From Bryobacterales bacterium (GTDB lineage Bacteria > Acidobacteriota > Terriglobia > Bryobacterales > Bryobacteraceae), in assembly GCA_963699905.1 (NCBI GenBank), contig CAVOVR010000007.1:152355-216354 (forward strand): a DNA stretch of 64,000 bases. Direction: 5' to 3'. How positions within the stretch are numbered: the stretch's first letter is position 1; every line of letters begins with the position of its first letter. Both the position numbers and the translations under genes were made by a program. This document shows, in pieces, positions 1,898 through 24,640 of this stretch. The notes beneath the pieces are model-generated. The model did not search any database. It had not been told where the DNA came from and saw only the letters and a program-made list of their open reading frames with translations.

Positions 1898-3750
1898 ATG
1901 GAACTTATGTCAACGGCAACCACAAAGACGACCCGGGACGTGGCCCGGCCGCTCAGCTCCAACAAGCATCTTCTGCGGTGGGTGGAGAAGATGGCGGAGC
2001 TGACCAAGCCGCGCGATATCCATTGGGTGGACGGCTCGGAAGAAGAAAACGAAGCGCTGTGCGCCCAGATGGTGGCGGGCGGCACGTTCATCAAGCTGAA
2101 CGAGGAGCTTTGGCCGGGCTGCTATTATGCGCGCTCGGACGCGAGCGATGTGGCGCGCGTGGAGGACCGCACGTTCATCTGCTCGCTGTCGAAAGACAAC
2201 GCCGGACCGACCAACAACTGGGTGAACCCGTATGAGATGCGCAAGAAGCTGAAGGAGCCTGTTCAGCGGATGCATGCGCGGGCGCACGATGTACGTGCTG
2301 GCGTTCAGCATGGGGCCGGTCGGCTCGCCCATGTCGCAGATCGGCGTGCAGCTCACCGATTCGCCGTACGTGGTGGTGAACATGCGCATCATGGCGCGCA
2401 TCGGGCTGCAGGTGTTCAAGGAAATCGACAAGGACGAAAAGCGCGTGGTGCCGTGCATGCACAGCGTGGGCATGCCGCTCGGGCCCGGGCGAGAACGACG
2501 TGCCGTGGCCGTGCAACGAAGAGAAGTACATCGTGCATTTCCCCGAGACGCGCGAGATCTGGTCGTACGGATCGGGCTACGGCGGCAATGCGCTGCTGGG
2601 CAAGAAGTGCTTCGCGCTGCGCATCGCGTCCAACATCGCGCGCGACGAGGGCTGGATGGCCGAGCACATGCTGATTCTGGGCGTGGAGGATCCGCACGGC
2701 GAGAAGACCTACGTGGCGGCGGCGTTTCCGAGCGCCTGCGGCAAGACCAATTTCTCGATGCTGATTCCGCCCAAGGGATTCGAGGGCTGGAAGGTGTGGA
2801 CCGTGGGCGACGACATCGCCTGGATCAAGCCGGATGCGAACGGCCGGCTGCGGGCCATCAATCCCGAGGCGGGCTTCTTTGGCGTGGCGCCGGGGACGTC
2901 GGTGAAGACCAATCCGAACGCCATGACGACGCTGGCGCGCAACACGATTTTCACCAACGTCGCGCTGACGCCCGAAGGCGGCGTGTGGTGGGAGGGCATG
3001 ACCGACGAGCCGCCGGCCGAGTGCCTGGACTGGCGGGGCAATCGCTGGACTCCGGAGATCGCGAAGGAGACCGGGGCCAAGGCCGCGCATCCCAACTCGC
3101 GCTTCACGGCGCCGGCCTCGCAATGCCCGACCATCGATCCGGCGTGGGAAGATCCCAACGGCGTGCCGATCAGCGCGCTCATCTTCGGCGGCCGGCGCGC
3201 CACCACCATGCCGCTGGTGTACCAGGCGTTCAACTGGAGCGCGGGCGTGTACATCGGGCGCAACCATGGGCTCGGAGACGACGGCGGCGGCGGCGGGCGG
3301 CGTGGGGCAAGTGCGGCGCGATCCGATGGCCATGCTGCCCTTCTGCGGGTATCACATGGGCGATTATTTCCGGCACTGGATCAAGATGCAGCGGACGCTT
3401 GAGCGAGACGCCGCGCATTTTCCACGTGAACTGGTTCCGCAAGGATGCCAATGGCAAGTTCCTGTGGCCGGGCTTCAGCGAGAACATGCGGGTGCTGAAG
3501 TGGATCGTGGACCGGGCGCATGGCCGCGCGCTGGGCCGCGAGACGCCCATCGGCTGGATGCCGCGCTACGAGGACATCGAGTGGGACGGGCTTGAGTTTT
3601 TCACGCGAGCAGTTCGATGAGCTGCAGGCCTTCGACCGCGAGGCGTGGCAGAAGGAAGTGATCGAGCACGAGGAGCTGTTCCTGGAGCTGCACGATCATT
3701 TGCCGCCGGAGATGATTTACGAGCGCGAACTGCTGATCTGCCGGTTGTAG
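1898..3750 (+). CDS. pckG: Phosphoenolpyruvate carboxykinase (GTP), interrupted by 5 single-base insertions
   Basis: PEPCK-GTP sequence runs across frames 2>3>1>2>3>1: ...[21 protein letters not shown] | [20 protein letters not shown]... | [46 protein letters not shown]... | [36 protein letters not shown] | [33 protein letters not shown] | [20 protein letters not shown]. Breaks lie near 2257, 2489, 3262, 3405 and 3598. The last falls in a T5 run. Confidence 0.9.
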
Positions 3751-3765
3751 GAACTTTGAGGCTTT

Positions 3766-4029
3766 ATGCAAGTGACTTTCGATGTGCCAGAGGAACTGGC
3801 CCAATATCTCGGTCAGGACCCCCAGGCACTCTCGCGCGCTGCGCTTGAAGCGCTGGTTCTTGAAGGCGTTCGTTCGGGTGCACTTTCCACAGCCCAAGGC
3901 CGTCGAGCCCTGGGCATCCGCACGCGCGAGCAGATGGATGCCTTCCTCAAGACCCACGGCATCAATCTTCCGCTCACGATCGAGCAGGTGCGCCGTGATA
4001 GCGAAATCGCGTTGTCATTCAGTGAATGA
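3766..4029 (+). CDS. UPF0175-family antitoxin-like protein
   Basis: 87 aa. MQVTFDVPEELAQYLG...ALEALVLEGVRSGALSTAQGRRALGI.REQMDAFLKTHGI matches the UPF0175 pattern usually paired with DUF3368/PIN toxins. Confidence 0.65.
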   Translation: MQVTFDVPEELAQYLGQDPQALSRAALEALVLEGVRSGALSTAQGRRALGIRTREQMDAFLKTHGINLPLTIEQVRRDSEIALSFSE

Positions 4030-14753: not shown

Positions 14754-15857
14754 TTGGACCTTTCGCAATTTCATTATCACTTGCCGGAGTCGTCGATCGC
14801 GCAGGAGCCGCTGGCGGATCGCGCGGCGTCGCGAATGCTGGTGCTCTATCGCGCGGAGCAGCGCTGGGAGGATCGTCTGTTCCGCGAGTTCCCCGAGTTC
14901 CTGCGCGCGGGCGATTGCCTGGTGCTGAACGATTCGAAGGTTTTTCCGTCGCGATTGTTGGGCATCGGGTTGGATTTTCGGGCGTCGTGGAGGTGTTGCT
15001 GGTGCAGCCGATGAGCGAGGATGCCAAGACGTGGACCGCGCTGGTGCATCCGGGCCGCAAGATGCGCACGCGGGAGCGAGTGGCTTTTGACGGCGTCGAG
15101 GCCGAGGTGATCGGGCGCGGCGAGTATGGCGAGCGGACGCTGCGATTTCACTTTTGACGATCGGGACGGAGATTTTTATGAGTGGCTGGGCAAGGATCGG
15201 GACATGTGCCGCTGCCGCCGTATATCAAGCGGGCCGACACGCCCGAGGATCGCGAGCGGTATCAAACCGTGTTTGCGCGCGAGGCCGGATCGGTGGCCGC
15301 GCCAACGGCGGGCCTGCATTTCACGGCCGAAATCTTGGATGCAGTGCCGCAAGGCCGGCGCGGAGATCGCGTACGTCACGCTGCATGTTGGGCTCGGAAC
15401 ATTTCAGCCCGTGCGTGGAGAGAAGCTGCACGCGGAGCGATTTTTCATAAATTCGCAAAACGAAGCCACGATTCGAGCGGCCGAACGTGTGATCTGCGCG
15501 GGGACCACGAGTGTGCGCGCGGTGGAGAGCATATATCTGGGCAAGAGTGTCGAGACGGATTTGTTCATTCGGCCAGGATTCGAATTTCGACGCACGAACG
15601 CGATGTTGACGAATTTTCATTTGCCGGAGTCGAGCTTGCTGATGCTGGTTTGTGCGTTTGCGGGACGGGAGTTCGTGCTGTCGGCGTATGAGCATGCGGT
15701 GAAGGAGGGATATCGGTTCTACTCGTACGGCGACTGCATGTTGATTCGTCTGAGTCAAAAGCCTAAGAACGATTGCCAGGATTTCAGGCCCTCGGTGTTG
15801 TGCGATTTGAGAGCTTCCAAGCCTTCCTGCGGCGCGTACGGGTCGGTGAGCAGATAG
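14754..15857 (+). CDS. queA: S-adenosylmethionine:tRNA ribosyltransferase-isomerase, about 4 indels; the literal stop at 15857 is probably a read-through artefact
   Basis: TTG 14754: [31 protein letters not shown]... | VVEVLLVQP...[10 protein letters not shown] | [13 protein letters not shown] | [26 protein letters not shown]...[13 protein letters not shown] | [18 protein letters not shown]...[17 protein letters not shown]...[12 protein letters not shown]. The tail after GDCMLI overlaps the convergent gene that ends at 15755. Confidence 0.8.
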
Positions 15858-16765
15858 CGGCCGACGCGCGCGATGTCGAGCACGTCGTCCATCATGGCTT
15901 TCCAATGATCGGGCGCCCAATCGATGGCGTGCGAAACCACGGAAGGCACGCCTTCGGCGACACCATCGGCCGTCACCATGTTGAACGACTCGGTGTAACT
16001 CGGCTGAAGCAACAGATGCATATGCGCGACGCTCTGGCGAAACTTGGGCCAGGATTGCCAGCCGTTCTCGATCAGCTTGACGTTGGGAAGGCCGTCCAGC
16101 ATCGCGTGCGCCGAGCGCAGGATGGTATCGCCGCCGCCCTCGGTGCGTCCGGCGGAGAGCCATAATTCGAGATTGGCCTTGTAGCGATGCGTGATTTCGA
16201 GGGCCGCGCCCGCCGCGCTCATGAAGTTCTTCAGCGGCCGCGTGGCGCCGAAAGCGCCGATGCGCAGAGTGCCGCCGCTGTAGAGCGGACGCCACGGAAG
16301 AAAGTCGGCGTCCAGATAATAGAGGTTCGGAAGGTAAGTGCATGGGCGCGTGTAGGCGCTGCGCACCCATTTGCAAAACTTGATGCTGTTGCCCGCCAGA
16401 TGAAAATTGTGCGCGGCCGCTTCCACTTCCATGGCCTCGCGAACCAGCCGGACGCCGTTGGAGTCGGCTTGCAGAAAGCCGACGTTGGAGTGGCAATTCA
16501 CCGCGAAACGCGTGGAGGAGTGGGCCAGCACCAGGCCGTGGACATCCACCGAGGGCATCCAGGGCGCGGAGATGACGACGTGGGTGGCGGGATCGCGCTG
16601 CAATCGATCGCGCAGGTCCTTGGCGCTGACTACGGGCCAGACATCGGCGATCACTCCGCCGCGGCGCAGCACTTTGCAGGTGTTGAGAGCCGAGACGCCG
16701 AGTCCGATGTGGCTGATGTTTTGTTGAGCGGCGAAGTTCTTATAGGCGAGGACGAGTCGTTGCAT
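15755..16765 (-). CDS. Hypothetical protein, possibly a GT-B (GT1/GT4-like) glycosyltransferase
   Basis: Intact 336-aa ORF. The C-terminal segment SYTESFNMVTADGVAEGVPSVVSHAIDW resembles the E-x7-E region of GT4 enzymes. Weak inference. Confidence 0.35.
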   Translation of the reverse strand: MQRLVLAYKNFAAQQNISHIGLGVSALNTCKVLRRGGVIADVWPVVSAKDLRDRLQRDPATHVVISAPWMPSVDVHGLVLAHSSTRFAVNCHSNVGFLQADSNGVRLVREAMEVEAAAHNFHLAGNSIKFCKWVRSAYTRPCTYLPNLYYLDADFLPWRPLYSGGTLRIGAFGATRPLKNFMSAAGAALEITHRYKANLELWLSAGRTEGGGDTILRSAHAMLDGLPNVKLIENGWQSWPKFRQSVAHMHLLLQPSYTESFNMVTADGVAEGVPSVVSHAIDWAPDHWKAMMDDVLDIARVGRYLLTDPYAPQEGLEALKSHNTEGLKSWQSFLGF

Positions 16766-16935
16766 CTCAGAACTCTGGGATGCTTCGATGCTAAGACCTA
16801 GGGCCAGATGTCCGGGAGGGCGATGCGCTCAAGCTTTTGAAAAGCGGTCAGAAGAAAATCGGCGAGAGATGTCATTCGGCTGGGTGTTGGTTCGCGGGAT
16901 TGGGTTCGTTTGGTAATTTCGCTGTGCGGGACCGG

Positions 16936-17583
16936 TCAGGCGAGCAAGCGATGCAGGAAAGCCCAATATCCAGGGCCCACGCGGAACTGGCCGTTCAGTG
17001 CCACGGGGGTTACGACGTACAGCATCGCGGAAAGCAGAGCCTGAGTGACGCCGAGCACGGGAACGCTGGGGCGGGCTTCAAACATTCGCGTTGAAACAGT
17101 TCCCCACAGAAATGTTGCGGGGACGAGGATGGGATTCGGAAGATGGGCGGCGGCGAACATTACGCCCGCGATGCCGGAGGTGCTCCAGGAAGCGCCGAGG
17201 CTGTCGCGCAACCGCCGGTAAAGCATGTTTTGAAGCAGGAGTTGCTGGAGAACACACCAGCAGGCGTAACCACACCAGCGATAAACCGCATGCATCGAAG
17301 TGGTGGTCTCGATCCACAGCAGGATGCCGAGCGAAACCGCGCAGCTTGCGAGCCACCACCGCCAAGCGGCGACCGCGCCGACGAACGCGCGCAGGCTCAA
17401 GCCGAGCGATTCCAGAGTCTCTGAATGCCAGACAAACGAAAGCGCGACCAGCGCGAGGGGAATGAACAGACTCCACGACCACCACAAAGGCCGCAGCCAG
17501 ATGTAGGCGATGACGAGGAAAGAAAATGCAAAGGCCTCGGCCAGGTGCCGAGCGCTATTCCACCGCAATGCTGCCGACCTCAT
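16936..17583 (-). CDS. CPBP (CAAX/Abi)-like intramembrane protein with degenerate catalytic motifs
   Basis: Multi-TM protein. FAAAHLPNP fits CPBP motif 2 (FxxxH). The position expected for EExxxR reads QQLLLQ. The start is taken at MRSAALRWNS (17583); the track ORF extends to 17682. Confidence 0.45.
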   Translation of the reverse strand: MRSAALRWNSARHLAEAFAFSFLVIAYIWLRPLWWSWSLFIPLALVALSFVWHSETLESLGLSLRAFVGAVAAWRWWLASCAVSLGILLWIETTTSMHAVYRWCGYACWCVLQQLLLQNMLYRRLRDSLGASWSTSGIAGVMFAAAHLPNPILVPATFLWGTVSTRMFEARPSVPVLGVTQALLSAMLYVVTPVALNGQFRVGPGYWAFLHRLLA

Positions 17584-17738
17584 TGTTACTATTTTATGAC
17601 AACCGTGGCGGAGGCAGGTTGAACCGCTATTATGGACTCTGCTCACGGGCGGGTCGTCAACGGTTCGGCCGTTTTCCGGCAATTAGACGTAACGCCGACA
17701 CCAGGTGATAGACTAATGCTTCTCCTTCAGAAAGACTT

Positions 17739-19541
17739 ATGCCCCCCACAACCGCAGTTGTCAATGCCGCCAATGCTTACCGGCAGATCATTACCAACTT
17801 CTCGAATCCGCTTGAGTTCGTCCGGGAGGCGATAAGCAACTCAATAGATGCCGCGGCAACAGCCTTGACTGTATCGGTCGAACAAGCGCCCGGTCCGACA
17901 GGCCAGCCAGAGATCAGAATCACGCTCAAAGACGACGGCAACGGCATGGATGCTCGAACGTTGGAGCGGTTCTCGCACCATGGTGGAATCGAGCGATGGT
18001 TCAACTTGGGCGACTCTGAAAAATCTGATCTGTAGATCGAAACTGACGACCCCGAGCATCCGATCGGTGAAAAGGGATTTGGCACCAAGATCTATCTGAA
18101 CAGCCGAAAAATAGAGGTCCGTACCCGCGATAAAGTATCCGGCATCGCCCGGAAGGCCACCAGCCAAGGTCATCTGGAGCGTATCCATGAATCGAATGCT
18201 CCGCAGTACGACACGAGCGAAGAGAACGATGGCGTCGAAGGCACTGAGATCAAGATCTTCGGATACAACTATAACGACGGCGCCAAGCTGGGCCACGACC
18301 AGCTCAAGGACTACATCCTGTGGTTTACGAAGTTCGGGTCCATTGAGCCCCTGTTGTGGCCGCTGTTCCCCAAATATGCCGTTTCAAAATCTCGTCTTTC
18401 CAGCTTGAAGCTCAACCTTCGTGGTCTGGGTTTCGATCCCTTGCGCCATGCCGGCGATGAAAACGCTAAGTTCGTAACTCTGGATTTTGGCCATCCATTC
18501 CCGGAAGAGTGCTTTGACGGCAAAGCGCTTCGCGCGAAGGCGAAGGCAAAGAAGGCCAGTCCTACGGATTTCTATTGCCGCCGATTCGTGAAAGAAGGCA
18601 GCTTGAAGAAGTTTCCGGGCTTTCGGTGGCAGGCTGCATTCTCAATCGAAGGAAACCGCGTGAAGTATGAATACAATCCGATGGTGCGGCGCCAACGATA
18701 CCAAGCGCCCCAGGGAGCCTACAAGGTAGCCGAACGATATGGCATCTGGATCTGCAAGGACTTCATTCCGGCCGACCGCGTCAACGTGCTACTCCCCGGC
18801 AAGGGGACTGAGTTCCTTAAATTTCACGCCTTCTTCAACTGTCAAGGGATCCGGCTGTCTGCCGACCGTACATCCATCGGACCTACGCCTCCCGACATCA
18901 GAGTTGCCATAGAGGAGCAGATCCTCGATCTGGTGAAGGAAATATTTGAGGACGAGGGTGTCGCGGCGCTCCTGGAACAGTTGGATGAAGCCGAGTTTGG
19001 CGAGCGCACCGAAGAGCAAGAGAAGAAGGACTATGCCCGCCGGGTCAAACAGGCTAAGAATGCTGCTTCAGCGATTTTCAAGAACGTGGATCTGAGAGAA
19101 CCTCAACGCGAACTGGGCGTGGTGGCGCTCTTGGCCCAACTCTTAGCCGTTGAACCGAGCCTGTTCCCTTTTCGAGTCGTGGATTGGAACAATGCCGAGG
19201 GATTCGATCTCCTGGCGCGAGATACAAGCGAACTCGGCTTCGAAGATGCTTCTAAATTCTACGTTGAGTGCAAGCACTGGCTCACTGGCACGTTCAATCA
19301 TTCCCTCAACAACGTGAAATACATCGTGTGTTGGAATTCCGACCTTGATAATGAGGCCATCGTCACCGCCGTCGGCGGCGATACTCGAAAGATGGTTATT
19401 AAACCAAAGGGCCTGGAGCGTCCGAGCACTCAGTTCTTCCTCTCCCGAGAAGACGCACCCAACAACATCGAAGTGTTCGTATTGCGACGACTTTTGGAAG
19501 AACGTCTGAACATCACCTTTCAGAAACCGGACGGCAAATAG
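17739..19541 (+). CDS. MORC-like GHKL ATPase fused to a C-terminal PD-(D/E)xK nuclease-like domain; a single reading frame interrupted by one in-frame TAG at 18033-18035
   Basis: All of 17739-19541 is one frame; track ORFs 17739..18035 and 18354..19541 are both in it. Bergerat-fold motifs: EAISNSIDA (N box), DDGNGMD (G1), then TAG, then GEKGFGTKIY (G2). Middle region: YGIWICKDFIP...LSADRTSI. An acidic coiled stretch follows. The C-terminus reads GFDLLAR...KFYVECKHW (D...ExK). About 52-55% G+C against about 65% in the flanks. Confidence 0.6.
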
Positions 19542-19683
19542 GCTCGGAACTCTTTACGAGTACTGTGGCGTTGCCAATCCACTTGGACTGTATTGTCGGC
19601 AACCGGTCGAAGTTCGTCTCCCACGCTAACAGACCCACTGTCGGGAGGCAGGGCACAATAAGGTAAACTAGCCTTTTGATCCC

Positions 19684-20853
19684 ATGAAAATTCACGAGTA
19701 TCAGGCCAAAGCGATTTTGGCCAAATACGGAGTCCCTGTGCCTCGGGGCGAGGTTGCGTTCACGGTTGACGAGGCGGAAGCGGCGGCCAAGAAAATCGGC
19801 GGCAGCGTGGTGGTGAAAGCGCAGATTCACGCGGGAGGCCGGGGCAAGGGCGGCGGCGTCAAGGTGGCGAAGGACGCGGCGGAAGCCGTCGAGATCGCGA
19901 AAAAGATACTGGGCATGCGCCTGGTGACGCATCAGACCGGCCCGGAAGGGCGCATCGTGCAGCGCTTGCTGATTGAGGAGACGCTGCCGATCGCGCGCGA
20001 GTTATACCTGGGCATCGTGCTGGATCGTGCGCAGGGCAAGCCGGTGTTCATGGCTTCGTCGGCGGGCGGGATGGATATCGAAGAGGTAGCCGCGAAATCG
20101 CCCGAGTCGATCTTGAAGGAAGCGTTGGAACCGGGCTACGGCCTGGCGCCGTTTCAAGCGCGCAGCATGGCGTTTGGAATGGGCGTGGAGTCGGAGAGCG
20201 CGAGCGCGGCGGTGTCGGCGATGATCGGGCTGGCGAAGGCGTACGATGCCGTGGATGCGTCGCTGGCCGAGATCAATCCGTTCATCGTATGCGACGACGG
20301 CAAGGTGTACGCGCTGGACGCGAAGTTCAACTTGGACGACAACGCGCTGTACCGGCACAAGGACCTGCTCGATCTGCGCGACTTGAACGAAGAGGATCCA
20401 CTCGAAGTGGAGGCGTCGCGATTCAGCCTGAACTACATCAAGCTGGATGGCGACATCGCGTGCATGGTGAATGGCGCGGGCCTGGCGATGGCGACCATGG
20501 ACATCGTGAAGTACGCGGGCGGGAGCCCAGCGAATTTCCTGGACGTGGGTGGAGGCGCGAACGCCGAGCAGATCAAGAACGCCTTCCGCATTCTGTTGTC
20601 GGATGCGGGCGTGAAGGCGGTGCTGATCAATATTTTCGGCGGCATCTTGCGCTGCGACGTGCTGGCCACGGGCGTGGTGAACGCGGCGCGAGAGCTGAAA
20701 GTTACAACACCGATCGTGGTTCGCATGGAAGGGACCAATGTCGAGAAGGGGCAGGAGATTTTGAGAACGTCGGGCTTCAACTTCACCGTCGCCGACGGGA
20801 TGCGCGATGCAGCGGAGAAGGTGGTGAAGGCGGCGCAAGGAGTGAAGGCATGA
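19684..20853 (+). CDS. sucC: Succinyl-CoA synthetase (ADP-forming) beta subunit
   Basis: [25 protein letters not shown]...[19 protein letters not shown]...[13 protein letters not shown]. Intact. Confidence 0.95.
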
Positions 20854-22240: not shown

Positions 22241-24640
22241 ATGAGGTGTAGCGCCTTGCTTCGACTTGTTCCGCGAGCCACCGGCATTTTGGTTCTGGCA
22301 TTGCCGGTCCTGGCATGGGCAGCGCAAACGACGGCCCTGGTGCCGTCGGTGTCCCAACTCACGCTCAGCGCGATTGCGAATGGTCCGGCGCCGCCTCCGC
22401 AAATTTTCACCGTTGTCGCGTCGGATGGCTCGTTCGTCAATATTGAAACGCTGGTGGACGGAGGGTCCGCGGGCAGCGCCGCACCGGCGTGGATCACAGT
22501 GACGCCGCATCTTGCCACAACGCCCGCGCAGGTGCAAGTGGCAGCGAATCCGGCCGGGCTCGGTCCAGGCGCCTATTCCGCGCGCGTCCAATTTACGGAC
22601 CTGAAAGGCAACTCGCTGGGGAGTGCAGTCTCGGTGACGCTCCAGGTTACAACGGGGCCGGCACAACTGGATGTTAGTCCGAAAATTCTGAACATCTCAG
22701 GCTCCATCGGGCAGGGGTACGTGCAACAAGGACTTTTCGTTCGCAATCTGGGGCCGGGAACGCTGGCGCCGGTGAGTGTCAGTGTGGTTTCGGGGTACCC
22801 GTGGCTCTCGGCAGTGGTTCCATCGTGCGATACGGCTTGCGCCATCACTATCCAGGTTGCGATCTCGACGCTCCCCCCTGGCCCACAAACTGGCCTGTTG
22901 CGAGTGAACACTGCATTAGGATCCGTCGACGTCCCGGTATCGTTGTATGCGGCCGATCACGGGCCGTTTGTTCAAGTGGCTCCCGAAGGTCTGCAATTCG
23001 GCACGGTGGAAAACACCAAGCTGGTGGATTCGCGCAGCATCTCGTTGGTCAACGGCGGAGATGGCCCCGCAAATTGGTCGGCGGCCGTGGTGGACGGTGC
23101 GGCGTGGCTTTCGCTCGATACCGCTTCGGGAGTAACCGCGGCCGGCGCGACGTCGCAGATCACGGCCACCATGAACTCCGGCTTTCTCGGCGGAGGCGTT
23201 TATGGTGGATTGATCGAGATCTCGGCGCAAGACGGAAGTTTCAACCCGCTCTACGTGCCGGTGGTGCTGCGAATCGAGAATCCCGGTACGGCGGCGGTTC
23301 CCGTGCTTTCCACCGGCGGTGTCCTTTTCCAAGTGCAGATCGGTTCTGAAGGCGAGCAACTGCCCGTGACGCTGTCGGCCGGGAGCCCGAGTTCGATCGA
23401 CTTTCAAGCGTCAGCGCAGAGCGCCGGGTGGCTTTCCGCCGGGCCGACGAGAGGGCAGGTGTCGGGGGCCTCTCCTGCCGCGCTGAACGTTGTTGAATCG
23501 CCCACTGGACTGGAGTCCGGCTTCTACAGCGGCCTGGTGAACGTTGCGTTCGGGACGGGCGCCTTGCGCACTCTCAACGTCGGCATGAGCGTGGTAGATC
23601 CGGCCAATATGAACTGCAAACCGCAGTTCCTCTACTTGACAGAGACGGCGCTGGGCAGTGGTTTCTCGACGCGCATTGGATATCCGACGCCGCTCGAAGC
23701 GGTGCTGCTGGACGACTGCGGCAACCTGGTCTCGAATGGATTCGTGAACGCGGCCTTTTCGAATGGCGATCCCGATCTGACGTTGGAACCGCTGGGTCAA
23801 GGCCAGTACGCGGCTACCTGGATGCCCGGCCACGCGTCCGATTCGCTGGCCAATGGCGTGGTAACGGTCACATTGAGCGCATTTGTTCCCAGGTTGGCCA
23901 TTGGATCCACCGATGCGAGCGGCACGGTTACGAGCGACACCGCGCCCTCCGTGACCGCTGATGCGGTTTTGAATAATTTGAATCCCCAGGTGGGTGCTCC
24001 CGTGGCGCCGGGGACCATCGTGCAAATTTATGGCTCGTCGTTGGGCATAACCGGTGCGGGCTCGTTGGTCAATGGGCAACTGCCCACCCAGTTGAATGGG
24101 GTTTCGGTGACCATCGGCGGAATCGAGGCGCCGCTCTATTTCGGCAGTAGCGGGCAGATCAACGCCCAGCTTCCGAACGAGCTTGAGGCCGGACAGCAGT
24201 ATGAGTTGTACGCCAACGTGAACGGACTTTACTCCAACCCCGTGACGGTAAATACGACGGCCGTGCAGCCTGGCTTGGCGAGCTTTGCCGACGGCACGGT
24301 GATCGCGCAGGATCTCAGCTACAGCCTGATCACCGCCGATCATCCGGCGCACGCGGGGGAAGTGATCATCCTGTATGCGACCGGCATGGGCGCCACGAAT
24401 CCGCCCGTGGCAACCGGAACTGTGGCGCCGAACTCGCCGCTGTCGAACGTCACGATGACTCCTCAGGTGACGGTCGGTGGCGCGAACGCGAAGGTGATAT
24501 TTGCGGGCTTATCGCCGGGATCGGTCGGGTTGTATCAAATTGACGTGACGATTCCGACGGGGGCAGGCACAGGAAGCGTGCCGCTGGTGATGAAGCAAGG
24601 CGGAGTAGCGGCCAACACGGTGATGGTGCCGGTGCAGTAG
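22241..24640 (+). CDS. Large secreted protein with repeated Ig-like/beta-sandwich segments and a Solibacter-type C-terminal domain (TIGR03437-like)
   Basis: Signal peptide MRCSALLRLVPRATGILVLALPVLAWAAQ. Repeated ...SVSVTLQV / VPVSLYA / VPVVLRIE modules. C-terminus ...IVQIYGSSLG...LPTQLNGVSVTIGGIEAPLYFGSSGQINAQLP...GLSPGSVGLYQIDVTIP. Intact 799 aa. Confidence 0.7.
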   Translation: MRCSALLRLVPRATGILVLALPVLAWAAQTTALVPSVSQLTLSAIANGPAPPPQIFTVVASDGSFVNIETLVDGGSAGSAAPAWITVTPHLATTPAQVQVAANPAGLGPGAYSARVQFTDLKGNSLGSAVSVTLQVTTGPAQLDVSPKILNISGSIGQGYVQQGLFVRNLGPGTLAPVSVSVVSGYPWLSAVVPSCDTACAITIQVAISTLPPGPQTGLLRVNTALGSVDVPVSLYAADHGPFVQVAPEGLQFGTVENTKLVDSRSISLVNGGDGPANWSAAVVDGAAWLSLDTASGVTAAGATSQITATMNSGFLGGGVYGGLIEISAQDGSFNPLYVPVVLRIENPGTAAVPVLSTGGVLFQVQIGSEGEQLPVTLSAGSPSSIDFQASAQSAGWLSAGPTRGQVSGASPAALNVVESPTGLESGFYSGLVNVAFGTGALRTLNVGMSVVDPANMNCKPQFLYLTETALGSGFSTRIGYPTPLEAVLLDDCGNLVSNGFVNAAFSNGDPDLTLEPLGQGQYAATWMPGHASDSLANGVVTVTLSAFVPRLAIGSTDASGTVTSDTAPSVTADAVLNNLNPQVGAPVAPGTIVQIYGSSLGITGAGSLVNGQLPTQLNGVSVTIGGIEAPLYFGSSGQINAQLPNELEAGQQYELYANVNGLYSNPVTVNTTAVQPGLASFADGTVIAQDLSYSLITADHPAHAGEVIILYATGMGATNPPVATGTVAPNSPLSNVTMTPQVTVGGANAKVIFAGLSPGSVGLYQIDVTIPTGAGTGSVPLVMKQGGVAANTVMVPVQ

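Follow-up and report, generated by a model that had tools for sequence, protein, structure and literature searches.

A horizontally inserted, recently silenced gene for a GHKL ATPase with a nuclease-like domain, upstream of sucC in a Bryobacterales bacterium

We analyzed a 64,000-nucleotide stretch of a Bryobacterales genome (GenBank assembly GCA_963699905.1, contig CAVOVR010000007.1), hereafter the window, in which positions 17739-19541 of the forward strand carry a 600-codon frame for a GHKL-type ATPase fused to a nuclease-like domain. Translation confirms what an initial annotation, made from the letters alone, had read here: the frame contains a single internal stop, a TAG at codon 99 (18033-18035). 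Intact relatives of this gene encode proteins of 584-595 amino acids (aa), with a typical length of about 591 aa. The gene is the only open reading frame (ORF) within an islet whose ends were located by comparison with a related contig, L089, that lacks it. The features of the locus are as follows:

17610-17618, forward strand: left 9-bp direct repeat, GGAGGCAGG, at which homology to the empty-site contig L089 stops (L089 comparison).
17619-19643, forward strand: inserted segment of 2,025 bp with a G+C content of 0.537, missing from the syntenic L089 (L089 comparison).
17677-19607, forward strand: core cassette common with loci L001 and L006, made of the ORF and its immediate surroundings, about 60 bp on the upstream side and about 50-65 bp on the downstream side (nucleotide alignment).
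17739-19541, forward strand: pseudogene for a GHKL ATPase, a middle domain, a helical linker and a nuclease-like domain, in this order (frame of 600 codons, alignment of relatives).
17973-17999, forward strand: lesion 1, an in-frame insertion of 27 bp adding nine codons, SHHGGIERW, at the start of the ATP-lid region (homologue alignments).
18033-18035, forward strand: lesion 2, TAG at codon 99, where relatives have AAG for lysine (close-clade alignment).
19644-19652, forward strand: right 9-bp direct repeat, GGAGGCAGG, with the sucC ATG (19684) 32 bp further downstream (L089 comparison).

L089 is a 71-kb metagenome contig that we retrieved with an exact-match DNA probe taken from the sucC leader. 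It is syntenic with the window on both sides of the islet, at 79-85% identity. In L089 the gene for a conserved membrane protein and sucC are immediate neighbours, their start codons about 60 bp apart and with no GHKL gene between them; in the window its counterpart (16936-17682, reverse strand, 88% identical) is found upstream of the islet. The 9-mer GGAGGCAGG occurs three times in the 64 kb, against 0.48 occurrences expected. Furthermore, the similarity of L001 and L006 to the window, at about 92-94% nucleotide identity, is confined to 17677-19607, and their flanks are unrelated. The empty site in L089, the 9-bp repeats and the near-identical copies in unrelated contexts establish horizontal acquisition, as the initial annotation had supposed: segment 17619-19643 is a horizontally inserted one-gene cassette. 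We looked for terminal inverted repeats or transposon termini at the two ends of the cassette and found none, and the insert contains no transposase or integrase. The junction repeat may represent either a target-site-like duplication or the trace of a circular fragment that integrated through a 9-bp microhomology.

Base composition is low across the gene, with G+C values of 0.505-0.563, while the 10-kb flanks of the insert have 0.617 and 0.599. The compositional dip reported earlier is therefore real inside the gene, although the flanks stand at about 60-62% rather than the 65% then given. The description of a single-gene islet without a partner also holds, as no other gene is present in the insert. 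The upstream gene had been described as CPBP/Abi-like; we discarded this identity as unsupported, since the gene product has no CPBP/Abi match in Pfam at E<=1. The GHKL gene and sucC are read in the same direction, and 32 bp separate the end of the insert from the sucC start codon (19644-19684), so that the native upstream region of sucC has been displaced. A scan of the cassette found neither a sigma-70-like promoter nor a relevant terminator. Transcription of sucCD may depend on read-through out of the GHKL cassette.

The TAG had been taken for the only defect of the gene. This is not the case: the 27-bp insertion, located between LERF and FNLGDSEK, is a second one. It is missing in 28 of 28 and in 111 of 111 aligned homologues, including two copies that are 96-97% identical at the protein level. 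We found no match to it in the flanks, in the whole window or in the fetched loci, and no significant hairpin local to it (z = -1.2). As to the stop, homologues of the close clade have lysine at codon 99 in all sequences but one (24 K, 1 R), which answers a question raised by the initial annotation. Codon 99 lies within a clade-specific lid loop of variable length, modelled with a predicted local distance difference test score (pLDDT) below 50. The closest intact homologues, P0001 (on L001) and the L006 gene, are the two 96-97% identical copies; both have AAG at this position and both lack the insertion.

The Logan assembly of run ERR11523645, built separately and from the same strain, carries the two lesions as well: its contig L086, which may come from the same reads as the genome assembly, is 99.85% identical to the window over 2,036 bp (17587-19622). 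The only differences are at 19587-19592, beyond the ORF and at the right edge of the common cassette, where L086 agrees with the L001 and L006 alleles. This agreement suggests either micro-heterogeneity or an assembly error at this spot. The TAG and the 27-bp insertion are both real. The ratio of nonsynonymous to synonymous substitution rates (dN/dS) of the window copy, with the insertion removed, is 0.074 against L006 and 0.069 against L001, close to the 0.077 obtained between L006 and L001. The window lineage has accumulated 21 private nucleotide changes, with three private amino-acid changes besides the stop, and has kept all family-invariant residues. From the low dN/dS and the few private changes, we conclude that strong purifying selection acted on the gene almost up to the time of its inactivation. 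Its silencing is recent, in line with the earlier suggestion of a real stop and a recently silenced gene.

Translation of the window copy ends after 98 residues, ahead of motif III of the ATPase. The next long ORF is a 395-aa frame with a TTG start at 18354, annotated by gene callers (P0022), which lacks the whole ATPase. The GHKL protein therefore cannot be made in this genome: the window copy is dead. The initial annotation had also seen no indel errors in the surrounding stretch. This is doubtful, given the state of queA (about 14754-15857, forward strand), 2.4-3 kb upstream, which shows two frameshifts (near 14942 and 15343) relative to the intact queA of L089. The window queA is either a second pseudogene or a site of assembly indel errors.

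The encoded protein, read through the stop, has four parts: a GHKL ATPase, a middle domain of the Hsp90/TopoVI-B/MORC type, an acidic helical linker and a C-terminal domain with an E...D...ExK pattern. Residue numbers below are those of the window frame.

17739-18353, forward strand: GHKL (Bergerat-fold) ATPase domain (Pfam, alignment, Foldseek).
17826-17840, forward strand: motif I, E30/N34 (family alignment).
17931-17945, forward strand: motif II, D65xGxG69 (family alignment).
18066-18089, forward strand: motif III, G110-K117 (family alignment).
18240-18245, forward strand: motif IV, G168-T169 (family alignment).
18354-18890, forward strand: middle or transducer-like domain, with K340-D341 (18756-18761, in WxCKDFIP) and R377/S379 (alignment, model, Foldseek).
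18891-19061, forward strand: acidic three-helix linker (model; the helices at 376-432 of P0001 correspond to window aa 385-441).
19062-19538, forward strand: nuclease-like domain, with E458 (19110-19112), D490 (19206-19208), E510/K512 (19266-19274) and N520-H521 (alignment, model).

All Bergerat, middle-region and D...ExK motifs quoted in the initial annotation are present and fall on invariant columns of the family alignment. In the ATPase, E30/N34/D37, D65/G67/G69 and G110-K117 (including G110/G113/G115) are invariant, and G168-T169 is conserved in at least 90% of members. Pfam HATPase_c_3 (PF13589) matches the protein with 32.9 bits against a cut-off of 25, and matches 29 of 29 family members. 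A profile of 111 homologues searched against the PDB retrieved MORC2, MutL and MORC3 with E values of about 4e-4, over the first 100 residues or so only. The AlphaFold2 model of the intact homologue P0001 has a pLDDT of 88.6 and a predicted template modelling score (pTM) of 0.74. Foldseek searches with this model retrieved Hsp90/TRAP1/HtpG, Topo VI-B and MORC4 at E values from 5e-13 to 1e-10. These matches extend over 420-500 columns, and thus cover a GHKL domain followed by the transducer or middle domain of such clamps. K340/D341 and R377/S379 are invariant in the family. The assignment as a GHKL ATPase is thereby confirmed, both by Pfam and by fold. The label 'MORC-like' applies at the level of the superfamily, but not beyond: a regular-expression scan for the MORC-specific S5 motif GhXhhpXXRhl found it in 0 of 111 members, nor does the window protein have it.

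The C-terminal domain was modelled alone (window aa ~437-600) with a pLDDT of 89 and a pTM of 0.86. The model presents a helix, three strands, a loop and a fourth strand (alpha-beta-beta-beta-beta). The first long helix opens with E458 and the second core strand with D490, and E510-x-K512 lies within the third strand; this predicted arrangement corresponds to the textbook PD-(D/E)xK layout. The conservation of the D/E/K residues had been singled out as a point to verify: E458, D490, E510 and K512 are invariant in a family whose identity falls to about 35%, and so are N520-H521. The nuclease claim stands as far as these invariant residues and the strand order are concerned, and is not matched by any significant profile or fold hit, so that the PD-(D/E)xK assignment is at present a motif-level prediction. 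Among the non-significant PDB matches of the model are the SPARDA nuclease subunit and, at E values of about 2, NlaIV and FokI. A profile search of 1.84 billion representative sequences detected the domain in 241 clusters; the proteins are 556-706 aa long, and the domain occupies the C-terminus in each. Ten of the most distant of these proteins were examined, and each matches a GHKL-type model at its N-terminus, nine of them above the HATPase_c_3 cut-off and one through a weak HATPase_c match. As far as this sequence search reaches, the domain appears to be found only in fusion with GHKL.

The family comprises at least 514 clusters at 90% identity and is present in at least 192 species among about 185,000 species-representative genomes, in a scattered pattern that takes in the Acidobacteriota, Bacillota, Bacteroidota, Chlorobiota, Verrucomicrobiota, Spirochaetota, Pseudomonadota and Nitrospirota as well as two archaea. 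When the 1,135 ORFs neighbouring the gene at 81 loci were clustered all against all, no conserved partner gene emerged, in agreement with the stand-alone status first assigned to the gene: the largest neighbour cluster is present at no more than 7 of the 81 loci, and no neighbour has a fixed position, except a TOTE-type primase at position +1. This primase is found in four Lachnospiraceae loci (L034, L044, L046 and L047; for example, L034 2286-5252), where a protein of about 985 aa encoded on the same strand contains the archaeo-eukaryotic primase domain of TOTE conflict systems (best E 1.7e-75). Other neighbours include ResIII/DEAD helicases, integrases or resolvases, GajA, methyltransferases, toxin-antitoxin pairs and a DDE transposase. 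Methyltransferases represent 2 of 145 immediate neighbours, and none is present in the insert of the window. A full-length copy was found on a mobilisable Caballeronia plasmid, near RelE/ParE, an antirestriction gene and ParB. Altogether, the family is sparse, laterally mobile and stand-alone.

Two further loci deserve mention. In L002 (1-17770; JGI contig Ga0558092_0002023), a copy 72% identical to the window gene lies in a dense conflict and mobile region, with an AAA_23 ATPase, an 847-aa ORF and a DUF2357/PDDEXK_7 protein upstream, and a DDE transposase, Uma2, RelB/YafQ and a DNA methylase downstream. In L087 (2937-5539), from the Natrinema sp. megaplasmid NZ_CP082247.1, a 518-aa paralogue has the GHKL and middle domains only; its start coincides with the stop codon of the gene for a TGT/DpdA-like tRNA-guanine transglycosylase homologue, an arrangement that hints at a link between this GHKL clade and 7-deazaguanine DNA-modification systems. 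We also considered this paralogue as a bridge to Shedu and rejected it, as its C-terminus has no recognisable domain.

How should this gene be interpreted? That it is an inserted, pseudogenised gene for a GHKL plus nuclease-like protein is, in our view, highly probable. The full proposal, namely that it is an inserted, pseudogenised gene of single-protein defence acting as a GHKL clamp-nuclease, is one that we favor with moderate confidence, whereas for the defence role and the clamp mechanism considered by themselves we see roughly even chances. Nuclease activity, clamping and defence are properties that we infer for the family by analogy, both with VcSduA, a GHKL-nuclease protein of Vibrio cholerae described below, and with GHKL clamps at large. 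According to this model, ATP binding would dimerise the GHKL domains, and the middle domains would close as a clamp around DNA. Clamp closure would then position or license the two C-terminal nuclease domains for DNA cutting. The outcome would be a single-protein defence against phages or plasmids that involves no methyltransferase partner. DNA ends, topology, modification or a phage factor are candidates for the cue that would separate self from non-self.

Several results weigh against the defence proposal. Many neighbours are plainly housekeeping genes, and the defence-related ones are given here as a raw listing. Only one full-length copy is known to be plasmid-borne, and a search of 50,697 phage records returned none. 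The window protein has 0 matches in PADLOC-DB v2.0.0, and family members match only the REase_II, MzaB and TmtA models of this collection, all weakly. As to the C-terminal domain, the best Foldseek match of its model has an E value of 0.24 in the PDB and of 0.11 in BFVD, a sequence profile search of the PDB returned nothing, and no Pfam nuclease family matched in 39 members. The model also lacks a helix between core strands 3 and 4, where a classical PD-(D/E)xK fold has one. Finally, hhalign comparison of this domain with the C-terminal domain of VcSduA gave a probability of 1.1% and an E value of 0.047.

Some of these points feed alternative explanations. The absence of any significant nuclease match in the profile and fold searches, together with the missing helix, would suit a C-terminal domain that is not a nuclease at all, but a DNA-binding or oligomerisation module whose E/D/E/K pattern is coincidental or serves another chemistry. 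We regard this as rather unlikely: four charged residues remain invariant at canonical positions down to about 35% identity, and the top matches, non-significant as they are, include the SPARDA nuclease subunit, NlaIV, FokI and a phage 'PD-(D/E)XK nuclease' protein. PD-(D/E)xK domains are, besides, notoriously divergent. The housekeeping neighbours, in turn, would fit a role in cell maintenance or repair, for instance as a MutL-like nicking enzyme or a recombination factor, rather than in conflict. The GHKL domain is indeed related to that of MutL, and Iyer et al. allow for 'acquired distinct functions' in stand-alone paraMORC3 proteins (PMC2292703). Yet a housekeeping gene would hardly be confined to 192 of about 185,000 species genomes scattered over phyla, occur as near-identical copies in unrelated contexts with an empty site in a close relative, or lie near toxin-antitoxin modules and a transposase and, on a plasmid, near antirestriction and partition genes. 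The gene is also dispensable in this genome, as its pseudogene state attests, and we hold a housekeeping role to be most improbable. We judge almost as severely the view that the gene is intact in the organism, the TAG, the 27-bp insertion or both being sequencing or assembly artefacts. The source is a metagenome-assembled genome, and the two queA frameshifts in the same window are probable indel problems. However, the two lesions recur in the separately built Logan assembly of ERR11523645 (99.85% over 2,036 bp); a non-repetitive 27-bp insertion and a clean A-to-T substitution are untypical of long-read errors; and the inserted sequence is matched nowhere else in the window or the fetched loci.

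Two other alternatives differ in mechanism. The GHKL and middle module might bind a phage protein or a misfolded protein instead of DNA, and switch on the C-terminal effector in the manner of an Hsp90-like sensor. Gu et al. raised this idea for Shedu proteins with GHKL N-terminal domains, and the best structural matches of our model are HtpG, Hsp90 and TRAP1 (E 5e-13 to 1e-11, about 430-460 columns). The DNA clamps Topo VI-B and MORC4 match nearly as well (E ~1e-11), though, and the best PDB sequence-profile matches are MORC2, MutL and MORC3, not Hsp90. The VcSduA authors likewise prefer a DNA/clamp model with direct, non-abortive defence (PMC12137116). An Hsp90-like sensor thus seems unlikely to us. 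Alternatively, the protein may be a solitary ATP-dependent restriction endonuclease of the GHKL type known from REBASE, either with an unlinked methyltransferase or with modified DNA as its target, like Type IV enzymes. Weak matches to the NCBIfam BbrUII/HgiDII model and to PADLOC REase_II (22 of 29 members, best E 1.1e-7) point this way, as does the existence of five GHKL subfamilies in REBASE, one with a PD-(D/E)xK C-terminus (PMC2441816). But the NCBIfam match covers only aa 22-173 and reaches 21 bits where 550 are required, only 2 of 145 immediate neighbours are methyltransferases, and no homology to a recognition domain was found. We think that a restriction enzyme of this kind has a small chance of being the correct answer. 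The preferred explanation remains a DNA clamp-nuclease acting in single-protein defence.

The locus itself provides a clean natural case of such a gene being gained and rapidly lost: the insertion site is precisely defined, a relative shows the empty site, and the junctions show a 9-bp repeat. A gene that had been under strong purifying selection acquired two inactivating lesions, which is the pattern expected of costly or toxic defence genes. If the family does act in defence, it would constitute a second, sequence-unrelated lineage of GHKL-ATPase-nucleases beside VcSduA, and would argue for a repeated coupling of ATP-gated clamps to nucleases in prokaryotic immunity. It would also offer, for mechanistic work, a compact protein (about 590 aa) whose cleavage domain is modelled with confidence and has no structural match. 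Since the window copy is non-functional, and since both the architecture and the probable role are already published, the finding is incremental.

Counting the islet, the window and L089 differ by three insertions or deletions within about 10 kb. The gene of a 799-aa repeat-rich protein (22241-24640, forward strand), downstream of ndk, is missing in L089 (segment 22170-24673), where the flanks are joined within about 10 bp. Conversely, L089 has an extra 527-aa ORF (2378-3961) between the glycosyltransferase and membrane-protein genes that is missing from the window (about 16856-16936); by the look of its sequence, it may encode a thiamine-diphosphate enzyme. Two genes upstream of the islet, a 336-aa ORF (15755-16765, reverse strand) has sub-threshold matches to 'GT4-conflict' (E 3e-4) and Glyco_trans_1_4. 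This ORF is also present in L089 and is therefore probably resident rather than part of a defence island.

We finally compared the family with known systems. With MORC, MutL, Topo VI-B and Hsp90 it shares the Bergerat fold, all ATP motifs and a middle domain with an invariant lysine (K340), which may be the basic residue that contacts the nucleotide in such clamps. It differs from them by the lack of a MutL C-terminal endonuclease domain, of a CW domain, of a coiled-coil or hinge and of a Topo VI-A partner, and by being stand-alone and mobile. Among restriction enzymes, Orlowski and Bujnicki listed in 2008 five subfamilies of REBASE that have GHKL at the N-terminus; in one of them the C-terminus is of the PD-(D/E)xK type (PMC2441816). 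R.HgiDII/BbrUII and R.VeiORF1182P (PD-(D/E)xK C-terminus) resemble our family in the fusion of an N-terminal GHKL domain to a putative cleavage domain. The resemblance in sequence is limited: the NCBIfam BbrUII/HgiDII model (NF050001) matches aa 22-173 only, with 21 bits against a cut-off of 550, and the PADLOC REase_II model (PDLC03419) matches 22 of 29 members weakly, with a best E value of 1.1e-7.

Canonical Shedu proteins (SduA, DUF4263) also represent a single-gene defence, in which a PD-(D/E)xK-type nuclease is regulated by an N-terminal domain. Their N-terminal sensor domains are non-enzymatic, and Shedu is reported to act as a tetramer. No Shedu structure is found in the top 50 PDB Foldseek matches of our C-terminal model (all E>=0.24). 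Gu et al. have described a Shedu class with GHKL and middle domains. We found no match to DUF4263 (PF14082) or to PADLOC SduA in 39 family members (E<=0.1-1), but the same test misses the relatives of VcSduA too. For instance, a Pfam-A hmmscan of the VcSduA relatives P0271, P0283, P0298 and P0368 finds neither HATPase nor DUF4263 at E<=1. Negative results of hidden Markov model searches are therefore unreliable as to membership in the GHKL-Shedu class.

The closest likeness is with paraMORC3 and VcSduA. Iyer et al. described paraMORC3 in 2008 as GHKL and S5 domains followed by a C-terminal restriction-endonuclease-fold domain with an E-D-ExK pattern, mainly in Proteobacteria and Bacteroidetes; a subset is stand-alone, without conserved neighbourhood, and may have 'acquired distinct functions' (PMC2292703). 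Our family shares this GHKL/S5/C-terminal E-D-ExK architecture and the stand-alone state, in a comparison made with the published description. VcSduA, from West African-South American Vibrio cholerae, was reported in Nature Microbiology in 2025 as a GHKL domain joined to a DUF4263 PD-(D/E)xK domain (PMC12137116). This single gene provides direct, non-abortive defence against T1-like phages, and its E27A and K557A mutants, affecting the ATPase glutamate and the nuclease lysine, are inactive (PMC12137116). Its authors equate the architecture with paraMORC3 and with the Shedu class having an enzymatic N-terminal domain, and favor a DNA/clamp model (PMC12137116). VcSduA is the only experimentally validated example of the GHKL clamp-nuclease architecture.

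VcSduA ('Shedu type I-D') and the window family are both single polypeptides in which a GHKL ATPase with motifs I-IV precedes a clamp-like middle domain and, at the C-terminus, a PD...ExK domain; they also share a stand-alone gene, a mobile-island location and a sparse, patchy distribution. They differ in length (673 aa versus about 591 aa) and in taxonomic range: the VcSduA relatives that we retrieved, fetched at full length through the published N-terminal sequence (the first ~400 residues), are mainly from Gammaproteobacteria, while the window family occupies Acidobacteriota, Bacillota, Bacteroidota, Chlorobiota and others. BLASTP finds no similarity between the window family and VcSduA (E 0.13). 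With hhalign, only the GHKL parts of the two families align, with a probability of 59% and an E value of 9e-5. VcSduA, which its authors identify with paraMORC3, is not detectably homologous to the window family in the C-terminal domain.

The architecture is thus not new: it was predicted in 2008 with paraMORC3 and validated in 2025 with VcSduA. By presenting the protein as uncharacterised in kind, the initial annotation overstated its novelty, because the kind was known (PMC2292703) and one family had been validated (PMC12137116); it likewise overstated the evidence for a nuclease, which is at the level of motifs. The window family is built like VcSduA and paraMORC3 and, we infer, would work like VcSduA; judged by sequence comparison, it does not appear to be a detectable member of the VcSduA/paraMORC3 family, of MORC proper or of the systems in PADLOC v2. 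We may hypothesize, giving it a little less than an even chance, that it is a single-protein defence system, as yet unnamed, with an origin independent of VcSduA/paraMORC3: a second, convergent 'GHKL clamp plus nuclease', in which an ATP-gated clamp would be tied for good to its own cleavage domain, possibly with a new branch or variant of the restriction-endonuclease fold. Relative to these known systems, the family is a distinct, unnamed variant, characterized by a structurally unmatched C-terminal domain.

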